A DNA stretch of 64,000 nt from IMG/VR virus record IMGVR_UViG_3300021963_006795; one strand, given 5' to 3'. The stretch's first letter is position 1. Each line of letters starts with the position of its first letter. The notes beneath the pieces were generated by a model, which saw only the letters and a list, made by a program, of their open reading frames with translations, did no database searches and was not told the DNA's origin. A program made the position numbers and the translations under genes. This document shows, piece after piece, positions 13,508 through 63,803 of the stretch. Source of the DNA: an uncultured virus (IMG/VR IMGVR_UViG_3300021963_006795) (lineage: Duplodnaviria; Heunggongvirae; Uroviricota; Caudoviricetes).

Positions 13508-14116
13508 TTACCACTTTTCTTCCTTCCATGTCAAGCGTTTTTTAAGTTCTTTATCAAAAATCATTAAATATCTATGTTTTCTACTACGCTCTCTCCATTC
13601 ACCTTTTTGACCTTTTACAGAACCTCTTGAATGTTTTGTTCCATCAGCATAATAAAAATCTTTCTTAGGGTTAGTTAGACCGTAGTAAGTAAAATTACAA
13701 GCTCTGTATATAACTCCAGTGTGGTGATTAGCATCAGCGTAACTAAGAATAGCACGAACGCGGGCATCTGTTTTAAATCTCCGAATGCAACGACTGACAA
13801 ACCAAGATGTAATATTATGTTCCTCTTTTTGTAGTTTTGGATGAACACAAAGTCTGGATAATTCGTATATTCCCTCTTGCTGGTTTCTTTCTAAACCAAA
13901 TGCTCCAACTGCTATTTCTGGGACTGGTATCCCAGTAAAGACACAAGCGCCCAAGCAGCCGCCAATCCTAAGAATATCAGAAACCGAGGATCTGAAAAGC
14001 CCATAGTTAAAACCAGATTTAAAATCTTTTGATTCGTCTTTAAGATAATGATAGGTATAAAGAAGATCTTTAATTTCTTCCTTACCTACCTTATCTATAT
14101 AAAAATCTGATTTCAT
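13508..14116 (-). CDS. Mom-like GNAT DNA-modification protein
   Basis: HYL, ELSRLC, SWFVSRC, ILSYAD and GVIYRACNF motifs typical of the Mu Mom family. Confidence 0.75.
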   Translation of the reverse strand: MKSDFYIDKVGKEEIKDLLYTYHYLKDESKDFKSGFNYGLFRSSVSDILRIGGCLGACVFTGIPVPEIAVGAFGLERNQQEGIYELSRLCVHPKLQKEEHNITSWFVSRCIRRFKTDARVRAILSYADANHHTGVIYRACNFTYYGLTNPKKDFYYADGTKHSRGSVKGQKGEWRERSRKHRYLMIFDKELKKRLTWKEEKW

Positions 14117-31801: not shown

Positions 31802-32248
31802 ATGAAGGAAAGTTTGAAGAGTAGATATAAACCTTCCTACCCAGAAAAATATAAAGGAAATCCTAATAATATTATTTGTAGAAGTAGTTGGGAAAGGAAG
31901 TTTTGTGTTTGGTGTGATACAAATCCAAACATAATTGAATGGGGAAGTGAAGAATTTTGGATCCCATATAAGTCACCAGTTGATAATAGAATACATAGAT
32001 ACTTTCCTGATTTTATTATTAAGGTAAAGGATAGTAATGGAACTATTAAGTCTTATGTTATAGAAGTTAAACCAAAAAGACAAACAGTTCCTCCAACTAC
32101 ATCTCCAAAAAGAAAAACAAAAACTTGGATCAATGAAGTAAAAACTTATGCTGTAAATGAAGCAAAATGGAAAGCAGCGAGAGAGTTTTGTGCTGATAGA
32201 CTATTGGAATTTAAAATTATCACAGAGGATGAATTGGGAATAAAGTGA
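31802..32248 (+). CDS. gp4: gp4-like head completion nuclease
   Basis: P.KYKGNP.NIICRSSWE, WGSEE, HRYFPDF, EVKP, NEAKW. Confidence 0.9.
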   Translation: MKESLKSRYKPSYPEKYKGNPNNIICRSSWERKFCVWCDTNPNIIEWGSEEFWIPYKSPVDNRIHRYFPDFIIKVKDSNGTIKSYVIEVKPKRQTVPPTTSPKRKTKTWINEVKTYAVNEAKWKAAREFCADRLLEFKIITEDELGIK

Positions 32249-35354: not shown

Positions 35355-35939
35355 CTAGTCATCGATTAATGTCAAGCGTTCCCCCTCAGGAATTTCCATT
35401 CGATATGCAATTGATGTTCTGTAAATATATGGTTCTATTGGTGCTAGACCTCTATGTGGGAATGCTCCAGGAAAAATTACCACCCTTCCTGGTACATATT
35501 TATGACTTTCTACAGGAGTTTTAAAATCTTTCATTAATTGAAATTCACCACCCCATTCATCTTTCCATACTGGATTTGACATTACTAATATTGTATATTC
35601 ATTTTCTTTTGATGCATCAGAATGAGTTGTTCCATCGCAACCATAATATTGAACATTAATATAAATTCCATGTAAATACATTTCATTTTCAATTTTTTCT
35701 TGGAGCACATCAAAAATATCAAAATACCACGATGAATCTTGAAAGAGTTCATCTACACGATTAAGGTCTGTTCTCCTAAAAATAGTCCTTCCCATTAATC
35801 TATGGGTTCCTTCATTACCATATGGATATGTTTTTCTATTCGCTACATTAGTTAAAACTAAAGGGGTTGCTAAAATTTCTCTATATTTTTCATGTAAATA
35901 AAGGTCATCAAATAAACCATCAATAACATTACAATACAT
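35355..35939 (-). CDS. 2OG-Fe(II) oxygenase
   Basis: HxD (HSD), W...WGGE, PGRVVIF, distal H (PHRG), R.S. Confidence 0.8.
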   Translation of the reverse strand: MYCNVIDGLFDDLYLHEKYREILATPLVLTNVANRKTYPYGNEGTHRLMGRTIFRRTDLNRVDELFQDSSWYFDIFDVLQEKIENEMYLHGIYINVQYYGCDGTTHSDASKENEYTILVMSNPVWKDEWGGEFQLMKDFKTPVESHKYVPGRVVIFPGAFPHRGLAPIEPYIYRTSIAYRMEIPEGERLTLIDD

Positions 35940-37220: not shown

Positions 37221-37901
37221 TCAAATCATATTAAGTTTATCATTAACAAATTTTTTAATGTATTGTACTAACATGCGAATATATTTTTCTTTATCTCTTT
37301 CTTCATATATCTCAACTTCTCCATCTTCACATGCCATAATAATTACAAATTTTTTAACCGAAAGACCTGTGAGTTCATGAAGCATACACGCATAAGCGCA
37401 ACATTGGACAAAATATCCATCAATCCATTCTCTGGGTTTTGGTTTTTTAGAAGTTTTGAAGTCAATGATAGAAAGTTCTCCGTCGAATTCTGCAATACAA
37501 TCGACAGTCCCAGCAATACCTAAGTATTCGCTATAAAGAGATCCTTCCAGAGCATAAATGTTATTTATACGATCTAAAGTTGGTTTTGCGAGATAGAATA
37601 AGTGTTGTGACAAAGGTTGAACATTAGAAAGTTCTCGATTATTTAAATAATCTTCAACAAGAGTATGCATATCGGTTCCTCGACTTGTTGCTTGTCGAGT
37701 AATTTTATCTGCTTCTTCTACCCCTACTCTTTCACGCCATTTGTTAAAGAAATCTTTTTTATAATGGCTAATAACAGAAGTGATGGATACTAATCGAAGT
37801 AGTTCTTCTTTAGTAGGAACTTTATAATAACGAACTCCATCAATAGTCTCCCTTTGAAGATTTGGAAGACCTAGTTCTTTGTGTTCAAAATTCAATTTCA
37901 T
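37221..37901 (-). CDS. PD-(D/E)XK exonuclease (Cas4-like fold)
   Basis: SITSV, RGTDMH, AGTVDC, IDFKTS, YFVQ..AY. Confidence 0.85.
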   Translation of the reverse strand: MKLNFEHKELGLPNLQRETIDGVRYYKVPTKEELLRLVSITSVISHYKKDFFNKWRERVGVEEADKITRQATSRGTDMHTLVEDYLNNRELSNVQPLSQHLFYLAKPTLDRINNIYALEGSLYSEYLGIAGTVDCIAEFDGELSIIDFKTSKKPKPREWIDGYFVQCCAYACMLHELTGLSVKKFVIIMACEDGEVEIYEERDKEKYIRMLVQYIKKFVNDKLNMI

Positions 37902-38574
37902 AATTATTTTTTCTGTATATTGGAATTGATTCCTTTTCGCAGGTTAAATGATGTATAAAAAATACTTGGGTTAATCTTGGTTCAAAATCATTAGCATAAA
38001 AATTAGATTCTTTATGAAATATATCTGACTGATACATAATCATTCTATTAAAAACATTTTTAACTTCTAAAGTTTTTTCAAATTTAGAATCATGCTTTTT
38101 TATAGACTTTATATATTCATCATAATCTATTTCTTTATCTGAGTAAAGAATATCTCTAGAAGTATAATCTAATTTTTCTAGAGTATTTGATTTTTTTAAC
38201 CTATAAAAAGATGTTCCTGAATCTAAATCCGAGATTTCATTTAAATATATTACACCAGCAGCAGCATAATCAATATCTATATGTTGCCATCCAGTATTTA
38301 AAAAAGATTTTTTTTCTTTATTATGAGGATATATTTTTTGAAAATGTGTAGATACTGCCCATTCAACTCTGGTGAAATCATAATCAAATAAAATAGAAAA
38401 TAAACGAGAACAAAAAGAATCAAAAAAAGATTTATTTATTTTGTATAAGTTCTCTGTTCTTTCTCCTGGATAGTTTCCAGGAAGTTTATTATAATCTAAT
38501 GATAATGCGAAGTCTCTTATTCTTTTTGGATCTGAATAAAAATCATCTACACATAATGTTGGAATAAACTTCAT
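37885..38574 (-). CDS. 2OG-Fe(II) oxygenase-like protein (DUF6445-like)
   Basis: VDDFY.DP, YPG.RT, HxD, AGVIYLN, GTSFY, NRMIMY...H, RLTQVFF. Confidence 0.7.
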   Translation of the reverse strand: MKFIPTLCVDDFYSDPKRIRDFALSLDYNKLPGNYPGERTENLYKINKSFFDSFCSRLFSILFDYDFTRVEWAVSTHFQKIYPHNKEKKSFLNTGWQHIDIDYAAAGVIYLNEISDLDSGTSFYRLKKSNTLEKLDYTSRDILYSDKEIDYDEYIKSIKKHDSKFEKTLEVKNVFNRMIMYQSDIFHKESNFYANDFEPRLTQVFFIHHLTCEKESIPIYRKNNYEIEF

Positions 38575-39326
38575 AAATTAAGTTCATTTTTTGCAATTAG
38601 ATATTCCTTACAAATTCCAGATCTTACAATATCTTCAATTGTAAATTCAATTGTTTCAAATGATGGCATAATACCAAGAATTTTCATAAAGTCAACAATA
38701 CCATTTTTCTCATTTGTTTTAACAAGATCAGATTGTGTTGCATCTCCACAGAACATAATCTTACTGTTCTCACCTACACGAGTGATGATAGAATCAAGTT
38801 CGTGGAAGTTTAAGTTCTGAAATTCGTCAACAATAATAATACAATTATCAAGAGTTGTACCACGAATGAATGATGTACTCCAGAATCCAATAGTTTCTTG
38901 AGTTTTTAAATTACCATAAAGCATTTCAAAGTCAGAATCTGATGGCATCTGGAACATATACTTTACCATATTCTTATAGGGAATTTGATAAAGAGATGAC
39001 TTATCTTCATGATCGCCAGGAAGAAAACCAATTTCCCGAGTAGCAACAAGAGACCTAACGATATAAATTTTTTCGTAAGGAGTTGTTTCATCCAACACAT
39101 CTTTGAGTGCATTGTAAAGTGTGATAAATGTTTTTCCAGTTCCTGCTGCTCCATAAGCAACAATATGCTTTCCTTCAGAATAAGAATTGAAAAGTTTTGT
39201 TTGATTTTCAGTTAATGGTTCAATATCTAAAAGATAAGAACTATTAATTGGTTTTTTTCTTTTCATCTGCTTTGCAGACATTCCAATTCCAATTTCTTGC
39301 TCTACTGATCTTCTTTTTCTTGCCAT
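38571..39326 (-). CDS. phoH: PhoH-family ATPase
   Basis: GAAGTGKT, IGFLPG, RGTTLD, DEFQN, GDATQSD. Confidence 0.95.
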   Translation of the reverse strand: MARKRRSVEQEIGIGMSAKQMKRKKPINSSYLLDIEPLTENQTKLFNSYSEGKHIVAYGAAGTGKTFITLYNALKDVLDETTPYEKIYIVRSLVATREIGFLPGDHEDKSSLYQIPYKNMVKYMFQMPSDSDFEMLYGNLKTQETIGFWSTSFIRGTTLDNCIIIVDEFQNLNFHELDSIITRVGENSKIMFCGDATQSDLVKTNEKNGIVDFMKILGIMPSFETIEFTIEDIVRSGICKEYLIAKNELNL

Positions 39327-39332
39327 AAGTTT

Positions 39333-39578
39333 TTACCAAATTTTTTGATTTGCACCAGGTGATTTTTTCACTTTACTCATAACATCATTCCATCCAGGAT
39401 GTTTCTTGGCAAGTTTATCTTTCCACTCGCCAACTTCACCAAAACCTGGAGCATTTTCTGGAGTATAGTATCTTTCCCATTCAGGATTATCTTTACACCA
39501 TTGATCCCAGTCATGAATACTCATGACGATCTCTTTTGTCTCTCCAGTCTCTTTATTTTTTACGGGATATGTTGCCAT
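39333..39578 (-). CDS. Conserved hypothetical protein
   Basis: MATYPVKNKETGE...; usual neighbour of phoH in these phages. Confidence 0.65.
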   Translation of the reverse strand: MATYPVKNKETGETKEIVMSIHDWDQWCKDNPEWERYYTPENAPGFGEVGEWKDKLAKKHPGWNDVMSKVKKSPGANQKIW

Positions 39579-39579
39579 A

Positions 39580-40716
39580 CTAATTTTCAGATTTACTATT
39601 ATTGTACACCATAACCTCAAGTTCTACAAGTTTTTTCATATAGTCTAAACTATATTTTGGACCATTGTATAATGTTGTTAATGGCGATTTTTTCATACTA
39701 TTAGAATGTTTATAATAATTATATTTTACCGATCCATATGCCTGACAACCATCATTGGCAACAGGATCAATGAAAATATTTAAATCAGGAAATTCTTTTT
39801 TTATTATCGAATTACCTAAAATATTTAGAGCACATCCTCCAGAGAAAACTAAATTTTTGCAGTCTGGTTTTAGTTCTACTGCTTGTTTAACTCTATACAG
39901 AAATACTTTTTCCAAATACTTTTGAACTTTAAATGCAAGATTTGCTTTCTTTTGAAAATTTAAATCTTTTAATTGTGGGTAATATTTATCGTTTAAGGTT
40001 CTGCTATAAAGTAATAAGTTTCTATTTGTATAAATTGTATCTTCAAAATTAAAGTTTGGTAGATCACTATCTTCTTCTCCATAAGAAGATAGTCCCATAG
40101 TTTTTCCTGGATTTTCTCTACCAAAACCCAAATACTTTGAAACTGTCCCGTAACAAACCCCAACATCAAATGAATGAATTAATTCATAGTTACTAGGAAT
40201 ATCTAATGTAATATCAGTTAAATCTTGTGGTTCAGAATAGTATAATGTTTTATGTAATAATTCAAAATTTGCCGGATAAGAAGCATAATAAATGCTAGTA
40301 GTTTCACTTGCATCTAATATTTCATGTTCTTCTGATAATGGAAAACTTGCTCCCCATCCATCAATAACTAAGCAAATAGCATCATCAAATCCAGACCCAT
40401 AAAATGCAGATGCTGCATGATACAAATGATGTTCTTTATGATCTACAAATACATCATCAATTTTTATTCCATCTTTTTTTAAAAAGTTTATACATATCTT
40501 AACTTCATGATCTCTTTCTGGATTTTGATTAATAAAAATTATATGATCTATAGTATTAGTATAAGATTTTATTAATTTTAAAAAAGAAAAAGGCATATCA
40601 GAATCTTTTTTTATTCTACTTATTCTTTCTTCTTGAACATATAATAAAACCTCTTCATCTTCTAAAATGCACAATGAAGAATCATGCTCTGCATTGGAGA
40701 TACAAACATTAATCAT
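39580..40716 (-). CDS. Carbamoyltransferase N-terminal (Kae1-like) half
   Basis: HDSS, EERISRIK, EHHLYHA, DGWG, GKTMGLSSYG, SGGCALN. Confidence 0.88.
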   Translation of the reverse strand: MINVCISNAEHDSSLCILEDEEVLLYVQEERISRIKKDSDMPFSFLKLIKSYTNTIDHIIFINQNPERDHEVKICINFLKKDGIKIDDVFVDHKEHHLYHAASAFYGSGFDDAICLVIDGWGASFPLSEEHEILDASETTSIYYASYPANFELLHKTLYYSEPQDLTDITLDIPSNYELIHSFDVGVCYGTVSKYLGFGRENPGKTMGLSSYGEEDSDLPNFNFEDTIYTNRNLLLYSRTLNDKYYPQLKDLNFQKKANLAFKVQKYLEKVFLYRVKQAVELKPDCKNLVFSGGCALNILGNSIIKKEFPDLNIFIDPVANDGCQAYGSVKYNYYKHSNSMKKSPLTTLYNGPKYSLDYMKKLVELEVMVYNNSKSEN

Positions 40717-41275
40717 TTTTTAATACAACCATTTTTAATTCTGGAAAATATACATAATCCATTTTAGATTTAGTAAGTGTCTTTATTGCATCACTTACAG
40801 TTTCAACTATAGGATCTCCCGCTACATTGAAAGATGTATTTAATAACATAGGTACTTTAGTTCTATCATAGAATTCATTTATTAAGTTATAGTAATTTAT
40901 ATTTTGTTTTTCATTTACAGTTTGAATTCTACAAGTGCCATCCACATGAACTATTGCTGGAACTTTGTCTTCTTTATTCTTTAAAATATTAAATGAAAAT
41001 GTCATAAAAGGTGAGGAAGAAATACCAAAAGTTTCAAACCATTGCGACACTTCTTCTTCCAAAATGCTGGCAGCAAATGGTCTAAAAGATTCTCTCATTT
41101 TTACTATATTTACAATATCTTTTCCATTAGGAACTCTTGGATCAAAAATTATAGATCTATTTCCAAGTGCTCTTGGACCACATTCAGATTGTCCTTGATA
41201 TATTGCACCAATTTTTTGTTCGATAATATAATTTACTATAATATCATCAGAGACATTTTCTAATATTTTAATCAT
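40709..41275 (-). CDS. Carbamoyltransferase C-terminal (YrdC-like) half
   Basis: GPRALGNRSI, RESFRPFA, HVDGTCRIQTV, LNTSFN. Confidence 0.9.
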   Translation of the reverse strand: MIKILENVSDDIIVNYIIEQKIGAIYQGQSECGPRALGNRSIIFDPRVPNGKDIVNIVKMRESFRPFAASILEEEVSQWFETFGISSSPFMTFSFNILKNKEDKVPAIVHVDGTCRIQTVNEKQNINYYNLINEFYDRTKVPMLLNTSFNVAGDPIVETVSDAIKTLTKSKMDYVYFPELKMVVLKND

Positions 41276-42490
41276 TCATCCAAGATATAGATTTTTAAGT
41301 GGTCTAACAGTCTTATCTTTCATAACACCATGATGAAACCATTTAGCGGCACCAATTGCTGTTCCAGCATCATGTGATATTGGATCAACAAAAAAGTTTA
41401 TATTGGGGAAATGTTCAAGATAATTATAATTATTTACACAGTTTAAGAAATAACCGCCAGATAATACAACATTCTTAGATCCAGAAATATCAATTGCTTT
41501 TTGAATAAGTCTTATAGTTTGTTTTTCAGTTTGTTCTTGAACTTTTTTAGCAATATTAGAATATTGATAAAAATCATAAGATGTTTTATCAAGTGTTTCC
41601 GGATTTATAAAAGGAGTTGTATCCAATGCACTAACTATATCTTCTATAAACTCTCCAGGTGCTGGTTCTGTTACCCAAATGTTATTAAAATTATAAAAGA
41701 ATTCTTCTTCAAGAATTTTTTCTTCTTTTTCAGGATCTCTTCTATCATAAACATGTCCTGGAATTTTGTAATCAACATTTCCATAAGAGGATAATCCCAT
41801 TACTTTACCAGCGGAATCATCTCCAGTATTAAAAAGGTAAGAAAGAATACTAAACAAATTTCCACAACTATTACTATGAGTATATACTTGCTCATAGGGT
41901 TTTGATTTATCTACCAAATATATTTCTTCAGAATTGGGATTTGGATCTAACAATCCATTATGTTTAAATAATGGTTGTATTCCATTATTATAAGAACATT
42001 TAAAAATAGTTTCTACTTCTCTAAATGGATATTCATACTTATCTTTAATATTATTATAATAAAAATCTTTATCATATGATCCTCCACCATCCATTACTAA
42101 AGCAACAGCATCTTCAAAACCGGAGGCATAAAATGCATTAGAGGCATGATATATGTGATGATTTTCATGATAGAAAATTTTAGTTTTATATTTTATTCCA
42201 CCTTCTTCAATCTTTTTTGATATGCATTTTATTATTTTTTCATCAAGTTCTTCTTGTCCATAAGATGAAAAAATAATGTAATCAATTTCATCAGTATATC
42301 TTTTGACAGTTTCTAAACAAGGAAAGTATGGAGTTACTATATCATGATCATTTATATCATTATAAAATTCTTGATATCCATAAAGTTTTTTTCTTGTTAA
42401 TCTTTCATCCTCCAAGAAAAATAAAATTTCACCATCTTTTAAAAGACAAGTTGAGGAATGGTGAGATATGTTTATACCTAAGATATACAT
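41276..42490 (-). CDS. Carbamoyltransferase N-terminal (Kae1-like) half
   Basis: ILGINISHHSS, ERLTRKK, HHIYHA, DGGG, GKVMGLSSYG, SGGYFLN, HDAGTAIG. Confidence 0.88.
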   Translation of the reverse strand: MYILGINISHHSSTCLLKDGEILFFLEDERLTRKKLYGYQEFYNDINDHDIVTPYFPCLETVKRYTDEIDYIIFSSYGQEELDEKIIKCISKKIEEGGIKYKTKIFYHENHHIYHASNAFYASGFEDAVALVMDGGGSYDKDFYYNNIKDKYEYPFREVETIFKCSYNNGIQPLFKHNGLLDPNPNSEEIYLVDKSKPYEQVYTHSNSCGNLFSILSYLFNTGDDSAGKVMGLSSYGNVDYKIPGHVYDRRDPEKEEKILEEEFFYNFNNIWVTEPAPGEFIEDIVSALDTTPFINPETLDKTSYDFYQYSNIAKKVQEQTEKQTIRLIQKAIDISGSKNVVLSGGYFLNCVNNYNYLEHFPNINFFVDPISHDAGTAIGAAKWFHHGVMKDKTVRPLKNLYLG

Positions 42491-43059
42491 TAATTATTCT
42501 CCGAAAATACTAATTTCCTTAATTCTGGAAGATACAAATATTCTATTTCAGATCTTTGTATTACATCTAAAGCATCTTTAACTGTTTCGACAATTGGTTC
42601 TCCCCCTAAATTGAAGGATGTATTACCAACAAAAGGAATTCCAGTGATATTTTTGAATGCTGAAATTAAACTATAATAATGATAATTTTGTTCTTTATTT
42701 ACAGTTTGTATCCTACATGTTTTATCTATATGTAAGATACATGAAAGTTGTTCTTTAAATTTATCATCTTTTACTTTAACTGCATATGACATGAAGGGAG
42801 TATTCTTTAATCCATTTGTTATAAAATAATGATCGAAATTTTCTTCCAAAATAGTACCTGCAACTGGTCTATACCACTCCCTACCTTTTATTTTGTTTAT
42901 ATAAAGATGTCCATTACGAAGTCTTGGATCAAATAGAATAGATCTATTGCCAAGTGCTCTTGGTCCTGCTTCAGATCTACCTTGAAAAATAGCAACAATA
43001 TTATTATTGGAAATTAATTTAGCAACAGTAAAGTAATCTACATCTTTAAATAATTTCAT
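42490..43059 (-). CDS. Carbamoyltransferase C-terminal (YrdC-like) half
   Basis: GRSEAGPRALGNRSI, REWYRP, HIDKTCRIQTV, NTSFN. Confidence 0.9.
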   Translation of the reverse strand: MKLFKDVDYFTVAKLISNNNIVAIFQGRSEAGPRALGNRSILFDPRLRNGHLYINKIKGREWYRPVAGTILEENFDHYFITNGLKNTPFMSYAVKVKDDKFKEQLSCILHIDKTCRIQTVNKEQNYHYYSLISAFKNITGIPFVGNTSFNLGGEPIVETVKDALDVIQRSEIEYLYLPELRKLVFSENN

Positions 43060-43084
43060 TTTTTCGATTTTTTATATTTAATAT

Positions 43085-43777
43085 TTATTCGATAATTAAT
43101 GATGGAGCATCTACACATTCTTCACAAATATTACTTCTTGTCCATCCTAAGGCAGAAGAAATTGTTGGGAACTGACAGACAAAGATACACTTTGCTTTTT
43201 CTGCAATATCCATATGTTCTTTTTGTGTTCCATTTCCACTACGAAGATCAATATAATGTATCCATGAACGTATAGATCCAGACATATAAAGACGAGTAGG
43301 AGTTGCTAGAGGTAATACAAACCTTGCACATTCTTTGGCAATTCCATCTTCCAACATTTTCTGATACAAATCCATTGAATGTTTAAAATGATCTTGCATC
43401 AAAATTTGATACTTCTGAATTATAAAAGGATCAACATCATTAATACTATTTTGACGATTCTTAGTGTCTTGACGACGGAGTTCAGGAACTGGAATTTCTT
43501 CTCCTAGAAGAGAAGAATCTGCATACCGTTGCGAAAATTCTTGATATGTAAATGATCTATGCCGAAGGATTTGAGCCGCTAGTCCACGAGTTGTATTAAT
43601 TTCAAGGGTCATAAATCCTTGTTCAAAAATACTCCAGTGTTGATTCTTAATGCAATATTTAATTAGACCTTCAAAACTATTACTTTCTTGATTATTGGGA
43701 TTGCTTACACGAGCACAATAAGCAATGTGCTTTTCTGCATCGGGAGTTACACTAATTAATTTAACTGATTGATTCAT
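43085..43777 (-). CDS. thyX: Flavin-dependent thymidylate synthase
   Basis: ARVSN, HWSIFE, RHRSFTYQEFSQRY, ECARFVLP; start set at MNQSV. Confidence 0.95.
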   Translation of the reverse strand: MNQSVKLISVTPDAEKHIAYCARVSNPNNQESNSFEGLIKYCIKNQHWSIFEQGFMTLEINTTRGLAAQILRHRSFTYQEFSQRYADSSLLGEEIPVPELRRQDTKNRQNSINDVDPFIIQKYQILMQDHFKHSMDLYQKMLEDGIAKECARFVLPLATPTRLYMSGSIRSWIHYIDLRSGNGTQKEHMDIAEKAKCIFVCQFPTISSALGWTRSNICEECVDAPSLIIE

Positions 43778-43778
43778 A

Positions 43779-43931
43779 TTAGTAGTCATTGGTTTCTTCA
43801 AAGATTTCGTCATAGTCTGTTATTGGAAAAGTTGTCTCTTCATAATCTATATCGGAATAAACTTCACTTTTAAGTTCTTTTAATATCTGTTCAAGGTTAT
43901 ATATAATCCTTGTTAATTTTTCTTTATCCAT
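43779..43931 (-). CDS. Small hypothetical protein (MDKEKL...)
   Basis: Acidic 50-aa ORF downstream of a promoter. Confidence 0.6.
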   Translation of the reverse strand: MDKEKLTRIIYNLEQILKELKSEVYSDIDYEETTFPITDYDEIFEETNDY

Positions 43932-47580: not shown

Positions 47581-47955
47581 TTAAATTAATTTATTAGTTC
47601 GTTTACCGTAAGTGTAAAGTTGTGGTTTTGCTGTCTCTCCAGCAGTCCATTCTTTAATTTTATTAAGTCTTTGTTGAGAAAAGAATGATTGTTTACGATA
47701 CCATTCTTCAACTGGAGTATGACCTTTAGATTGGTTACAATTTTTGCAACAGCAAACTGTATTTGTTGTAAAGTCACTTCCTCCTTTAGATTGTGGAACT
47801 ACATGATCTATTGTTAATTCTTCAGAAGATTCGCAATACGCACATTTGTAATCCCATTTTTCTTTTATAGTTTTTCTCCACAGTCTTTTTGCCTCAGAAG
47901 AAGTACATGTGTACATATGGTACAGGTACTCACTCGGAGAATTGTAGAGAACCAT
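47581..47955 (-). CDS. HNH endonuclease
   Basis: CAYC..TIDHVVPQSKGG..N..CCKNCNQSK. Confidence 0.88.
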   Translation of the reverse strand: MVLYNSPSEYLYHMYTCTSSEAKRLWRKTIKEKWDYKCAYCESSEELTIDHVVPQSKGGSDFTTNTVCCCKNCNQSKGHTPVEEWYRKQSFFSQQRLNKIKEWTAGETAKPQLYTYGKRTNKLI

Positions 47956-56248: not shown

Positions 56249-57715
56249 TCAGAACTTGAAGGTAGTCTGAATTACACCACCCCAGTTGGAGGAGTTTCCA
56301 GCAAGACGCTGGTTATCGCTACCATAGATGATAGCAGGAGTGATGCTGATGTTATCAGACACTTGGTACTTGTAGAAGACTTCAAGAAGAGTGGACTTCT
56401 CAAGGTTTTCGCCAGTAGGTGCCTGACCGATAGCAACACCAGCAGAATTACCCTTAGCAAATACATCTGCCCACTGGAGACCAGCAAACCAGGACTGACT
56501 GTTGGTAGCAGCACTTTCAGTACCACTTACAGTGTTCCAACCATAACCACCAGAGATTGAAGGTGCCCAACCAGATTGGGTGGGTTGCCAATATGCGTTG
56601 ATAGCATAACCATTAGAGGTTTGACCAGGAACCAGAGTGCCAGAAGCACCGTTCAGACCGTTGTAAGTGCGAACACGAGTGCCTTCGGTGCCATAACGAT
56701 AACCGAAAGCAGCACCCCAGTTAGTGCCACGATAACCGATTTGTGCCAGAGTATTCAGAGCACCAGTCTCATCAAACTCACCACGGGTGCTATCTTGACC
56801 TGCTTGTGCAACATAATTCACACCAGCAACAAGACCTTTCTTACCATACTGGACACCGAAACCAGCACCAGTTGCTTTGTTATAAACACCAGGAGTACCA
56901 GCAACAGCAAAGAAGTCAAGAATACCAGACTTGTATGCAGAAGGCATCCAAGCAATCTCAGTGTTACGAACCAGAGCACCAGCAGTCAGAGTTGCTTTGT
57001 TATTGAAAGCAGGGAACGAATAGTAGAGACGATCAATCACTACATTGTTACCAACTTCACTGGAAGTATCATCTGCTTTATCCAGTTTGAAAATTGAAGA
57101 ACTAGAACCGAAGGGATTGCTACTAAAGTTAGCAGAACGCAGACGAGTACGAAGCAGATCCTTGCCAGTGAATGAAGTATCCAGGTTCAGACGGAGATCG
57201 TAGTTGAATGCGGTATGAGTTACATCACCACCTTTGGTCTGGTATTCATCAACACCACCAAGAACGAAGTTTGCTTCACCACGAAGTTTTGTAGTGGTGG
57301 AAAACTGGGTTGCTTCAAGTTCACCAACTTGTGCTTCCAGTTTTCCTACACGATTACGAAGCACAGCAAGTTCTTGCTCAAACTCATTAGCAAGACGCTT
57401 GAGTTCATCGGTAACTTCGGTCACACGATCCAGGCAAGCATTCAGAAGTGCTGCCGCTTCATAACGGGTCATTGCCTTACCACCACCAAAGGTGCCGTTA
57501 GGATAACCAGCAACGCAACCATAACGCTCTACAAGGTTGCTGAGTGCTTGATATGCCCAATCAGTAGGACGGACATCAGAAAATTGAGTGACACTTGTAA
57601 CTTGCTCAGAAGAATATTGGTTGACCCCGTTCATATTAAGGTCTGCTGCCATCGCAGCAGGAGCAACCATTCCCAGAGCAACAGGTGCAAGCATCAGTTG
57701 TTGAAAGAATTTCAT
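56249..57715 (-). CDS. Cyanobacterial porin (SLH domain plus OprB-type barrel)
   Basis: Signal peptide, FSDVRPTDWAYQAL..LVERYGCVAGYP, FSTTTKL.GE, C-terminal TTFKF. Confidence 0.92.
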   Translation of the reverse strand: MKFFQQLMLAPVALGMVAPAAMAADLNMNGVNQYSSEQVTSVTQFSDVRPTDWAYQALSNLVERYGCVAGYPNGTFGGGKAMTRYEAAALLNACLDRVTEVTDELKRLANEFEQELAVLRNRVGKLEAQVGELEATQFSTTTKLRGEANFVLGGVDEYQTKGGDVTHTAFNYDLRLNLDTSFTGKDLLRTRLRSANFSSNPFGSSSSIFKLDKADDTSSEVGNNVVIDRLYYSFPAFNNKATLTAGALVRNTEIAWMPSAYKSGILDFFAVAGTPGVYNKATGAGFGVQYGKKGLVAGVNYVAQAGQDSTRGEFDETGALNTLAQIGYRGTNWGAAFGYRYGTEGTRVRTYNGLNGASGTLVPGQTSNGYAINAYWQPTQSGWAPSISGGYGWNTVSGTESAATNSQSWFAGLQWADVFAKGNSAGVAIGQAPTGENLEKSTLLEVFYKYQVSDNISITPAIIYGSDNQRLAGNSSNWGGVIQTTFKF

Positions 57716-60816: not shown

Positions 60817-60845
60817 AGTATATATAACACTTTTAGATTTGTCAA
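60817..60845 (-). promoter_or_regulatory. sigma70 promoter for the hli/petF operon
   Basis: TTGACA-17 nt-TATACT; the -35 overlaps the upstream TGA. Confidence 0.7.
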
Positions 60846-61645
60846 GAGGTTTCTTGAGTTTGATTTGACGGATTTGTGATTCTACCTAGATAAGGATCAT
60901 AATCCATTAAGAAACTAATATCGAATTTTGATCCTTGAGTTTCCCAAAAACCAAACTGCGCTTCATAATTTTTCTTATGAAATACATCTACATGTTCCGG
61001 ATGAATAGATGATCCTAGTTCTGTTCTATAGAGAAGAAGTGGAATAGAATAAGTATTTCCAGAATTATACAAAAGATCATCTGCAACTGGACGAGGTTTC
61101 ATTCCATTATCAAGTCTATACTTATCAACACCTTTAATGTGATGTTTGATAAGTTTTTCAGCATGATGTCGATTAATCAAATAACATGCTGTAGAGAAGT
61201 CATTTACAAACCTCTTATGAAGTCTAACATGGATATCTCCAGTACAAATAATAGCAATCTGAACAACATCCCAATCGTAAGGAATTCTTGAATAAAAATC
61301 ATTCCAAGTAAAGTTCCAATATCTTACCAGATCCAAACTACAATCATCTTCCATAATGATTGCATAAGGACTATCAGATGTATCGTACCAGTGTTTGATT
61401 GCTTTTAAGTGTGATGTAATACATCCAATTTCACCAGAAGTAACGCTTGGAGGATATGTGCCTTTTAAGATGCTACCAAGGTCATCTTCTCTACCATCAT
61501 ATGCAGAGATACGAGTATAGTTTTGAATCTCCCAATATTTAAATTGATCTTCCATATATTGTTTTCTTTCCGGTTGACCGTCAAGATTTATATAATAGAT
61601 TGGACCAATATTTCTTAGTTTGTAAGTAGATTTATTTTTATCCAT
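60842..61645 (-). CDS. GT25-family glycosyltransferase
   Basis: YINLD...ER, RISAYDG, GEIGC..SH, IMEDD. Confidence 0.85.
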   Translation of the reverse strand: MDKNKSTYKLRNIGPIYYINLDGQPERKQYMEDQFKYWEIQNYTRISAYDGREDDLGSILKGTYPPSVTSGEIGCITSHLKAIKHWYDTSDSPYAIIMEDDCSLDLVRYWNFTWNDFYSRIPYDWDVVQIAIICTGDIHVRLHKRFVNDFSTACYLINRHHAEKLIKHHIKGVDKYRLDNGMKPRPVADDLLYNSGNTYSIPLLLYRTELGSSIHPEHVDVFHKKNYEAQFGFWETQGSKFDISFLMDYDPYLGRITNPSNQTQETS

Positions 61646-62432: not shown

Positions 62433-63016
62433 GTTACAGCAATTAATCTATCATCAGTTTTTTTGTGTAGATCTAGTTCAACAATATGCACTTCTCTATC
62501 AGGATAAAGACCTAGAATAAAATCACGAAGATCTGTAGCATTCTCTGCAGTTTGAACATCTTCACAAATATAAATTCCACCCTCATTTAGATATGGAAAA
62601 TAATTCTCAAAGTTCTTCATTTGCTGAGTAAGTTGATGATTCGCATCATCAATAATAATATCAAAACTTAGATCTTGAAAATGCCCTTCAATAAGAGTTG
62701 GACTTTCGCAGTCAAAATTGAATAGAGTAATTCTTTGATGACTGTTTACATCTGCCATTACAGCATCACCATCAACAGGTTCAAACTGGTAATGCCACTG
62801 ACCATCTTTCTGTGAGAAATCTTCTACTCCATAAATCTGAGAATTTTCAAAATACTTTTCCCACATCTTTAGAGAACCACCGAATAGAACTCCAATCTCA
62901 AGAACATTAAGTTCTTCAGTTCTACGATCAGAAAAAGTTTGCTCATACCAATCAATATATGAGTGTGCAGTTCCTTTATCAGTTTTAAACTGGGTATGAA
63001 TATCAGTTAATTTCAT
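62429..63016 (-). CDS. Class I SAM methyltransferase
   Basis: TDK..HSY, VLEIGV..GGS..W, FDIIIDDANH, GGIYICED. Confidence 0.85.
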   Translation of the reverse strand: MKLTDIHTQFKTDKGTAHSYIDWYEQTFSDRRTEELNVLEIGVLFGGSLKMWEKYFENSQIYGVEDFSQKDGQWHYQFEPVDGDAVMADVNSHQRITLFNFDCESPTLIEGHFQDLSFDIIIDDANHQLTQQMKNFENYFPYLNEGGIYICEDVQTAENATDLRDFILGLYPDREVHIVELDLHKKTDDRLIAVT

Positions 63017-63803
63017 ATGATTCTCTCCATTGATCATAAAGTTCTTCATTTAAATATTGATCTACTTCTAGATCCATTGATGATTGATTTTGAACAGACA
63101 TTACTCTTCGTTCAAAATTAGTCACAGGATCATCTTTAGTAGACCCATTACTCTTAAAGTGAACAGTGTAAGTTTCATCTGTCAATTCAGAATCAGCACA
63201 TACTTCAAGTTCATTCAAATATCCAATATTAAGATCAGAACTTTCTCTAAGAATAGTGTTCATTGCTGGTGTTTCGTGAGGGAATGGTGTTCCATTCTCA
63301 CCAAATTCTTTCATTTTATTAATCCACTTCTGAACAAAAATCTTTGACTTTTGTGGATTATTAAAGACTACAAAACTAGCAATCTCACTAATAAAGATTC
63401 CATCAGCACGAGTATGTCCACCAGTTTTCATAGTGGTTACTTGAATATCATACTCAGTATTAATGAGAGATTCAATATCTTTCATAACACAAACATCACT
63501 ATCAATCATCACAACAGGATGATCAAAGTCAATCATATGAAATAGTTTATTCAAAGTTTGAGTTTTCATTTGAGTTGCTTTTACCCAACCTTCAGAATGA
63601 ACTCCACTATATTCATCAGAACAGTCTGTATCTAAAATACTAATTTTATTTTTACTAGCAATAGATTTGCGATATTCACCGAGTCCACTATCTGCAACAT
63701 AAATCCTATCAATATTTTTACAGTTTTTTAGAACTGAACTTGTGAAAATATCAAGGAAGGGATAATAAGACTTATTCGCTGTTGTAAAAATACTATACTT
63801 CAT
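63003..63803 (-). CDS. Nucleotide-diphospho-sugar transferase (GT-A)
   Basis: DSD (DxD) motif; context in glycan cluster. Confidence 0.65.
   Translation of the reverse strand: MKYSIFTTANKSYYPFLDIFTSSVLKNCKNIDRIYVADSGLGEYRKSIASKNKISILDTDCSDEYSGVHSEGWVKATQMKTQTLNKLFHMIDFDHPVVMIDSDVCVMKDIESLINTEYDIQVTTMKTGGHTRADGIFISEIASFVVFNNPQKSKIFVQKWINKMKEFGENGTPFPHETPAMNTILRESSDLNIGYLNELEVCADSELTDETYTVHFKSNGSTKDDPVTNFERRVMSVQNQSSMDLEVDQYLNEELYDQWRESYEIN

Follow-up and report, generated by a model that had tools for sequence, protein, structure and literature searches.

In this work we examined a stretch of DNA of 64,000 nucleotides (the window in what follows) from an uncultured virus (IMG/VR record IMGVR_UViG_3300021963_006795), and in it a cassette of four adjacent genes, C1, N1, C2 and N2, which encode twice over, as separate proteins, the two halves of a carbamoyltransferase. 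The window belongs to the genome of a T4-like cyanomyovirus. Among its genes, nearly all of which are on the minus strand, are psbA, psbD, gnd, speD, cpeT, petF, gp32, gp59, a late-transcription coactivator gene and baseplate genes. The cassette and its flanks are listed here (aa, amino acids).

43085-43813, minus strand: thyX (PF02511, E=3.2e-45), the upstream backbone flank, not part of the enzyme
42490-43059, minus strand: C1, 189 aa, YrdC-like, PF16861 (Carbam_trans_C), E=5e-56, 189.3 bits
41276-42490, minus strand: N1, 404 aa, Kae1-like (ASKHA), PF02543 (Carbam_trans_N), E=2.8e-27, 96.5 bits
40709-41275, minus strand: C2, 188 aa, YrdC-like, PF16861, E=2.7e-60, 203.2 bits
39580-40716, minus strand: N2, 378 aa, Kae1-like, PF02543, E=2.5e-26, 93.4 bits
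39333-39578, minus strand: small transcriptional-regulator-like gene, 81 aa, phrog_385 'transcriptional regulator' at 3.9e-31, the downstream backbone flank

All four proteins exceed the curated cut-offs of their Pfam families (24 bits for PF02543, 27 bits for PF16861), so that the domain matches are far beyond chance, and with E=9.4e-69 C1 also fits phrog_20469, a profile of 181 positions for stand-alone C halves. The thyX gene lies directly upstream of C1, 25 nucleotides (nt) away, and N2 is followed on its 3' side by the regulator-like gene and then by phoH. C1 and N1 overlap by 1 nt (TAATG), the TGA stop codon of N1 directly abuts the ATG of C2, in frame, and C2 and N2 overlap by 8 nt. These are probably the junctions of a translationally coupled operon, from which the four genes would be translated together. 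An original prediction, made from the letters of the sequence, had described four tightly coupled genes giving two YrdC-like and two Kae1-like halves with the C half first; exact coordinates, Pfam families and junctions agree with it, and the copies are as diverged as it had proposed (C1 and C2 are 45.9% identical over 185 aa, N1 and N2 29.6%). The AT-richness that it had noted is also real, with a GC content of 0.28-0.29 for the cassette, although it is not specific to the cassette, because low GC extends over 36-44 kb and includes backbone genes. The regulator gene is more likely to encode 81 aa than the 95 aa of the open reading frame (ORF) as listed, which starts with a TTG at 39620 (39333-39620) and overlaps N2: alignments with relatives begin only at residue 13-15 of this ORF, and 1 nt past the N2 stop there is an ATG, at 39578.

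Judged by their domain content and catalytic residues, the four proteins are class III O-carbamoyltransferase halves, and we consider it fairly probable that the region encodes two heteromeric enzymes of this class (TobZ/NodU type), each composed of a small YrdC-like subunit and a larger, iron-binding Kae1-like subunit. In class III enzymes the YrdC-like domain makes carbamoyl-AMP and the Kae1-like domain transfers the carbamoyl group (PMC9633730), in agreement with the chemistry that the original prediction had stated. Conservation was assessed against 117 fused homologues, in the columns that are conserved in at least 93% of them and bear a catalytic or metal residue, and every such column is retained in C1, C2, N1 and N2. 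In N1 the predicted base is H10 and the metal ligands are H111, H115, D134 and D374, with H111, H112 and H115 forming the HHxxH motif; in N2 the base is H11, the ligands are H96, H100, D119 and D322, and HHxxH is H96, H97 and H100. The ligand columns are invariant in 117/117 fused homologues and the His-base column is conserved in 111/117, and N1 H10, H111, H115, D134 and D374 pair in the alignment with the His/His/His/Asp/Asp set of TobZ. GdmN uses two His and two Asp as iron ligands and an N-terminal His as base, an arrangement stated to be conserved across class III enzymes (PMC9633730). On the C side, C1 and C2 retain GPRALGNRS, K58/K59, R60/R61, H110, TCR.QT and NTSFN, and the motifs GPRALGNRS, K..R.E..RP, H.D.TCR.QT and NTSFN are kept in both and in six further split C proteins. 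The motifs on which the original prediction had relied, HHxxH in N1 and N2, GPRALGNRS and NTSFN in C1 and C2, are all present.

The proteins depart from the usual class III architecture, which is one polypeptide with the Kae1-like domain first, in being encoded by four ORFs with the C gene first. They also stay far below the cut-off of the NodU equivalog NF041651 (C1 94.6, C2 101.3, N1 21.9 and N2 30.2 bits, against 1000), so that the annotation 'Nol-like', carried by relatives, marks family resemblance only. A cyanophage Nol-like carbamoyltransferase has been described as the first enzyme of pyrimidine synthesis, PyrB/PyrBI (PMC9146016; PMC10436341). An identity with PyrB (aspartate carbamoyltransferase) was considered here and rejected, as the proteins have no match to aspartate or ornithine carbamoyltransferases and only PF02543 and PF16861 match; judged by this domain content, the role given in these two papers is unsupported.

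Four ORFs in place of fused genes could be the broken pieces of tandem fused genes, or artefacts of assembly or frameshift, devoid of function, and the in-frame TGA of N1 followed by the start of C2 could resemble a nonsense mutation in a canonical N-C gene. This explanation is already largely refuted, and we regard it as very improbable. A near-identical IMG/VR record encodes the same proteins (100% for the four halves, thyX and phoH, 98.9% for the regulator-like gene in its TTG-started reading). Contigs from four runs of four other studies, aligned to 39300-43900, show no indels: one contig of 3958 nt spans 39300-43255 with 0 differences, and contigs of two other runs span the C1/N1 and C2/N2 junctions, one of them also N1/C2, with at most one substitution, located away from the junctions. 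Three studies thus cover the junctions exactly, and read-level errors, which the original prediction had named as a possible refutation, do not explain the split. Three further viral contigs read thyX-C1-N1-C2-N2-regulator-phoH, with proteins 67.6% (C1), 61-63% (N1), 78-79% (C2) and 63-64% (N2) identical to those of the window; in two of the relatives, L009 and L011, orthologues by position are 67.6% (first C), 78-79% (second C) and 63-64% (last N) identical. Synechococcus phage S-SCSM1 has four intact counterparts in the same order (58% identity for C1, 44% for N1, 60% for C2 and 37% for N2), all four coding sequences being annotated 'Nol-like carbamoyltransferase'. Intact ORFs therefore persist at 37-79% amino-acid identity with all catalytic residues retained. 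The in-frame TGA-ATG junction is seen only in the window and the near-identical record; at the N1/C2 junction the frame is shifted by +1 in L009 and L011, and in S-SCSM1 the two genes overlap by 4 nt. As the in-frame junction is not conserved, it is not that of a broken canonical gene, and stop-codon read-through or a nonsense mutation joining N1 to C2 was rejected for the same reason.

Among 1710 N1 homologues, from a search over lengths of 222-707 aa, the best 120 all consist of the N half only and measure 350-435 aa, which argues against remnants, and among the best 120 short C1 homologues 101 are C-only and 19 are pieces with both domains. In contrast, the best 120 longer C2 homologues are all fused with N before C (117 N-C and 3 N-N-C by hidden Markov models), as expected from the statement in the original prediction that these enzymes are normally one N-C polypeptide. 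No fused C-to-N, circularly permuted, protein was found among these 120 longer homologues or among 80 viral loci. In cellular genomes, a pattern scan for near relatives, over one genome for each of 185,579 prokaryote species, gave two loci with the split form, both on contigs of 4.0-4.5 kb from metagenome-assembled genomes, one C-N and the other N-C. Taken over its occurrence in many independent assemblies, the split is real, not a sequencing artefact, and its conservation indicates that it is under selection.

How the C and N subunits work together can be approached from gene order and from a structural model. An IMG/VR scan with an alignment of N1-type proteins gave 302 confirmed stretches, of which the best 80 were analysed and collapsed at 95% identity into 54 clusters. 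Of the 76 loci that are not truncated on the side upstream of the N1-type N gene, 71 have a C gene immediately before it; the other five (L079-L083) read N-C-thyX-N(-regulator-phoH), with thyX inside the array and the first N and C in canonical order as separate ORFs. The commonest array is a single C-N pair (28/54 clusters), and the others are C-N-C-N (13/54), C-N-C-N-N (6/54), N-C-(thyX)-N (2/54), C-N-N-C-N (1/54) and C-N-N-C-N-N (1/54), the three remaining clusters (3/54) being truncated. A complex was predicted for N1 with C1, the sole pairing modelled, each protein with its own alignment, in three runs and with three controls. The interaction prediction score from aligned errors (ipSAE) was 0.90, 0.91 and 0.90, against 0.00 for the best control; in the calibration, 116/157 solved complexes and 2/215 mismatched pairs reach the mark. 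The partner has a predicted local distance difference test score of at least 90, and the runs agree in at least 98% of contacts. The interface involves residues 27-38 and 110-116 of C1 and 228-236, 348-376 and the C-terminal 399-404 of N1, and contains both active-site motifs. This model supports a TobZ-like N1-C1 heterodimer in which the modules are packed so that their active sites would face a common channel. In TobZ and HypF the YrdC-like domain sits at the cleft of the Kae1-like domain, with a channel of 15 Å between the sites for carbamoyl-adenylate (PMC10484737). The modular activator/transferase pairs that the original prediction had postulated are therefore in keeping with the position of C upstream of N, with the existence of phages that have a single pair and with the N1-C1 model.

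We propose that each C subunit would use ATP and host carbamoyl phosphate to make carbamoyl-AMP. It would dock on the cleft of its N partner, so that the labile adenylate could pass through a short internal channel as it does in fused TobZ, and the His base and the His/His/Asp/Asp metal site of the N subunit would then transfer the carbamoyl group to a hydroxyl of the acceptor.

Fixed pairs are not the only arrangement that can be envisaged. The C subunits could form a pool of interchangeable carbamoyl-AMP synthases serving several N transferases, a combinatorial set with no fixed pair, a proposal that we consider unlikely. Arrays with more N than C genes would fit it (C-N-C-N-N in 6, C-N-N-C-N in 1 and C-N-N-C-N-N in 1 of 54 clusters, among them L028, L034, L036, L041, L044 and L091), and so would the two N-C-thyX-N clusters, the N genes being full length in all of these. 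C halves are moreover far more conserved than N halves (identities of 55-64% between C2 and the fused homologues listed, and of 57% for C1 and 54.5% for C2 against the C domain of the fused S-CAM8 protein), and the interface residues on the C side are the invariant active-site motifs. Two distinct C paralogues with positional orthology across divergent phages would however be unexpected if one C served all N, and the commonest array has one C and one N. A broader proposal, which is possible though doubtful, is that cyanomyoviruses have a combinatorial multi-subunit carbamoylation system, in which a free C would dock several interchangeable N subunits (N1-type, N2-type and others), arrays from C-N to C-N-N-C-N-N would let a phage switch target by swapping N at a hot spot, and the product, a novel carbamoylated compound (surface glycan, nucleotide sugar or component of nucleic acids), would change how phages interact with hosts or with each other.

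The cassette is inserted on one side or the other of the regulator gene, towards thyX or towards phoH, and some C-N pairs are found at other places, where neither thyX nor phoH is present within 4 kb. S-RIM44 (gp034-035) and Sf-FP1 (218-219) are among the phages with a single C-N pair. P-TIM68 has the order thyX-regulator-phoH-exonuclease-gp33 and no cassette; as the backbone exists without it, the cassette is, by this comparison of gene orders, an accessory element inserted at a hot spot that T4-like cyanomyoviruses have between thyX and phoH, and its proximity to thyX is a matter of position, not of pathway. The weight that the original prediction had given to the adjacency of thyX is consequently lost, since the order thyX-regulator-phoH is itself conserved as backbone. 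In a few metagenome contigs the regulator region is joined to thyX (39404 to 43080 and similar; 39404-43203), skipping about 3.7 kb; the flanks of these joints are 20-31 letters at 90% likeness, which is weak, and such joints are as expected for co-occurring relatives devoid of the cassette. A DUF6445 protein (PHROG 'minor coat protein') is encoded after phoH in the window (37885-38574, minus strand) and between thyX and C1 in L019 (1249-1938), and is absent from the neighbourhood of the cassette in most relatives. It was considered as a partner hydroxylase and rejected as not linked, being present in 1/4 double-pair and 0/22 single-pair loci among those that reach from thyX past phoH to the exonuclease gene.

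Every double cassette has a first pair closest to C1/N1 of the window and a second pair closest to C2/N2. This positional orthology indicates that the duplication predates these phages, and the two pairs are ancient paralogues, which would have arisen after the gene split. The N genes of single-pair phages fall in the N1-type clade (50 rows, all split, with a Shimodaira-Hasegawa-like approximate likelihood-ratio test support, SH-aLRT, of 100). The trees were quick ones with no rooted outgroup, in which every second or third fused match was sampled. In the first N tree N2 stood beside seven fused proteins (SH-aLRT 96), and in the first C tree C2 stood among fused rows, as an independent origin of the second pair from a fused gene would have it. 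This origin is not supported, as it was lost in a second N tree, enlarged by 13 split N rows and with S-SSM7 gp123 left out, where one branch has all 67 split N rows on the same side (SH-aLRT 94), and in a C tree constrained to hold the 58 split rows together, the likelihood of which was higher by 30.8 log-likelihood units (p-AU of 0.80 in the approximately unbiased test). One split followed by an ancient duplication would be the simplest reading; a single origin is not rejected, nor is it proven.

N1 and N2 are 43-67% identical in three core segments, 24% in 141-225 and 17% in 241-315, where there is also a 34-residue indel, a pattern that fits different acceptor pockets on a shared core. Since they share a catalytic core and differ strongly in the variable segments, they would most likely act on two acceptors or on two positions, and the two acceptors that the original prediction had inferred are a reasonable reading of the sequences. 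As to the nature of the acceptor, our tentative preference, which falls a little short of an even bet, is for a sugar, either a nucleotide sugar or a glycan made during infection. An NAD-dependent epimerase/dehydratase (PF01370 at about 1e-46, PF16363 at about 1e-44) is encoded directly after N2 in 3/3 relatives in which the ORF in the gap was tested (L019, L021 and L024), 15/80 loci have an equally large gap (about 1.0 kb), and the gene annotated directly after N2 in S-SCSM1 is also an epimerase/dehydratase. This neighbour of N2 in relatives points to a sugar or glycan acceptor. S-SCSM1 carries many glycan-synthesis genes, including GDP-sugar and glycosyltransferase genes (PMC9602691), and for fused cyanophage paralogues a role in modifying capsular polysaccharide or in producing a metabolite has been proposed (PMC7824862). 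About 18 kb from the cassette the window itself has a GT25 gene (60842-61645, minus strand) and a nucleotide-diphospho-sugar transferase gene (63003-63803, minus strand), from which a glycan acceptor could derive. We rate a small metabolite other than a sugar lower, as rather unlikely, and a DNA base or nucleotide as the least likely of the three.

DNA hypermodification would mean that the enzymes carbamoylate 5-hydroxymethylcytosine (5hmC) or 5-hydroxymethyluracil in phage DNA, or a nucleotide precursor, and so shield the genome against restriction. One phage member of the family does carbamoylate 5hmC, as the original prediction had stated (PMC8670742), the cassette lies in a block of nucleotide metabolism and replication genes beside thyX, and cyanophages carry many 2-oxoglutarate (2OG)-Fe(II) oxygenases of unassigned role, one of them encoded at 35355-35939 in the window. 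However, thyX belongs to the backbone and is present without the cassette, and ThyX is not homologous to the ThyA-type hydroxymethylases that co-occur with the DNA enzymes (PMC8670742). PF00303, the family of ThyA-type hydroxymethylases, has no match in the complete genomes of S-SCSM1, S-RIM44 and Sf-FP1, nor among the 56 of 80 window ORFs scanned, and TET/JBP proteins are above cut-off in none (0/3) of the same three genomes, which disfavours carbamoylation of a DNA base. The known enzyme, one chain of 63 kDa, furthermore reads GPRALCNTT where 8/8 split C proteins examined read GPRALGNRS, the G and R positions of which are kept in 117/117 fused homologues, so that its clade-specific pocket residues are not found here, the motif being compared with the one printed enzyme only. 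The DNA-base acceptor put forward in the original prediction is accordingly disfavoured, and we hold this explanation to be improbable.

Even less probable, in our view hardly credible, is a t6A-type chemistry (t6A, N6-threonylcarbamoyladenosine), in which a phage TsaC/TsaD-like pair would make threonylcarbamoyl-AMP and modify tRNA or nucleotides. In the t6A pathway the YrdC-like and Kae1-like proteins are normally separate, and a viral fused TsaD-TsaC enzyme modifies ADP and ATP (PMC10484737). Against this, only PF16861 and PF02543 match the window proteins, no TsaC/Sua5 or TsaD family does so at E up to 0.01, and the closest solved structures are O-carbamoyltransferases. The tRNA acceptor offered as an option in the original prediction is unsupported, given the lack of a TsaC or TsaD family match.

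Several points weigh against two heteromeric carbamoyltransferases acting on sugars. The N1-C1 score may reflect likeness to the solved single-chain TobZ and GdmN structures, which would show likeness and not binding. Arrays with more N than C genes account for 8/54 non-redundant clusters, which argues against strict one-to-one pairs of C and N. The cassette of the window has no adjacent epimerase, so that the link with sugars is borrowed from relatives. Finally, as the scan was confined to window ORFs, a hydroxymethylase elsewhere in this phage is possible.

Other genes of the window were observed in passing. A protein with a TnsA-like endonuclease domain (31802-32248, plus strand) is encoded on the opposite strand among baseplate genes, and an HNH endonuclease at 47581-47955 (minus strand); both genes are likely to be selfish elements. 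A host-like outer-membrane porin gene at 56249-57715 (minus strand) encodes a protein of 488 aa with SLH and OprB carbohydrate-selective porin domains. A protein of 202 aa (13508-14116, minus strand) matches the Mom family (PF25680, 7.1e-23), 26 kb from the cassette and with no link to it seen; Mom of phage Mu is a DNA adenine-modifying enzyme.

The genes studied here were already known as annotated GenBank entries, and stand-alone C halves as a PHROGs family (phrog_20469). Literature searches on cyanophage and phage carbamoyltransferases, within the accessible part of the texts retrieved, returned no description of split, C-first or multi-N arrays. The chemistry is predictable; the new aspect is the organisation in subunits and the variable C:N numbers, which are accessible in culturable phages; S-SCSM1 and S-RIM44 grow on hosts of the Synechococcus WH7803 type. 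TobZ-type enzymes are the classic case of a YrdC-Kae1 fusion through which an unstable acyl-adenylate is channelled, and a large natural family with separate modules, reversed gene order and variable C:N numbers offers a system for studying the hand-over of the adenylate and the swapping of acceptor specificity. The gene set is abundant in ocean viruses: viral contigs that carry it number in the hundreds, and stand-alone halves in metagenomes in the thousands. A carbamoylated surface glycan, if that were the product, would be relevant to superinfection exclusion and to the grazing of picocyanobacteria.

Among known systems, TobZ, GdmN and NovN (PDB 3VEN, 7VYJ, 9S2T and 7XB6; no paper on 7XB6 turned up in the literature search) share with the window proteins the two catalytic modules, the metal ligands, the His base, GPRALGNRS and NTSFN. 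They differ in being one chain with the Kae1-like module first, whereas the window has two genes per enzyme with the YrdC-like gene first; GdmN in addition has a C-terminal dimerisation domain, which the window proteins lack, and in the window N and C are each present as two paralogues. In HypF, a class II enzyme, the YrdC-like module precedes the Kae1-like module, as in the gene order here, and the extra domains are an acylphosphatase and a zinc finger. A channel links the two sites of HypF (PMC10484737), but HypF is one chain of four domains that carbamoylates a cysteine of HypE (PMC9633730), whereas the window proteins match only carbamoyltransferase Pfam families. The pairs TsaC/Sua5 and TsaD/Kae1 also consist of separate activating and transferring modules that hand over a labile acyl-adenylate (PMC10484737), and differ in their Pfam families, in the threonylcarbamoyl group and in the tRNA acceptor. 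The 5hmC carbamoyltransferase found by MetaGPA belongs to the same Pfam families, comes from phage and needs carbamoyl phosphate and ATP; it is however a single chain that co-occurs with a ThyA-type hydroxymethylase, in contrast with the split proteins beside ThyX (PMC8670742).

Comparable systems are also found in other cyanophages. S-SCSM1 gp175-gp178 (NC_070962), S-RIM44 gp034-035 and Sf-FP1 218-219 are orthologues of the split genes, likewise located between thyX and phoH; their sole annotation is 'Nol-like carbamoyltransferase', and the words carbamoyl and nol have 0 occurrences in the S-SCSM1 paper. S-SCSM1 shares the C-N-C-N order of the window and adds a nucleotide-sugar epimerase after N2, while S-RIM44 and Sf-FP1 have a single pair. 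The fused carbamoyltransferases of the S-SSM6a/S-SSM7 cluster and of S-CAM8 are accessory genes of the same family in the same viral group, but they read N-to-C and belong to another genomic island, which also holds 2OG oxygenases, a halogenase and heptose genes.

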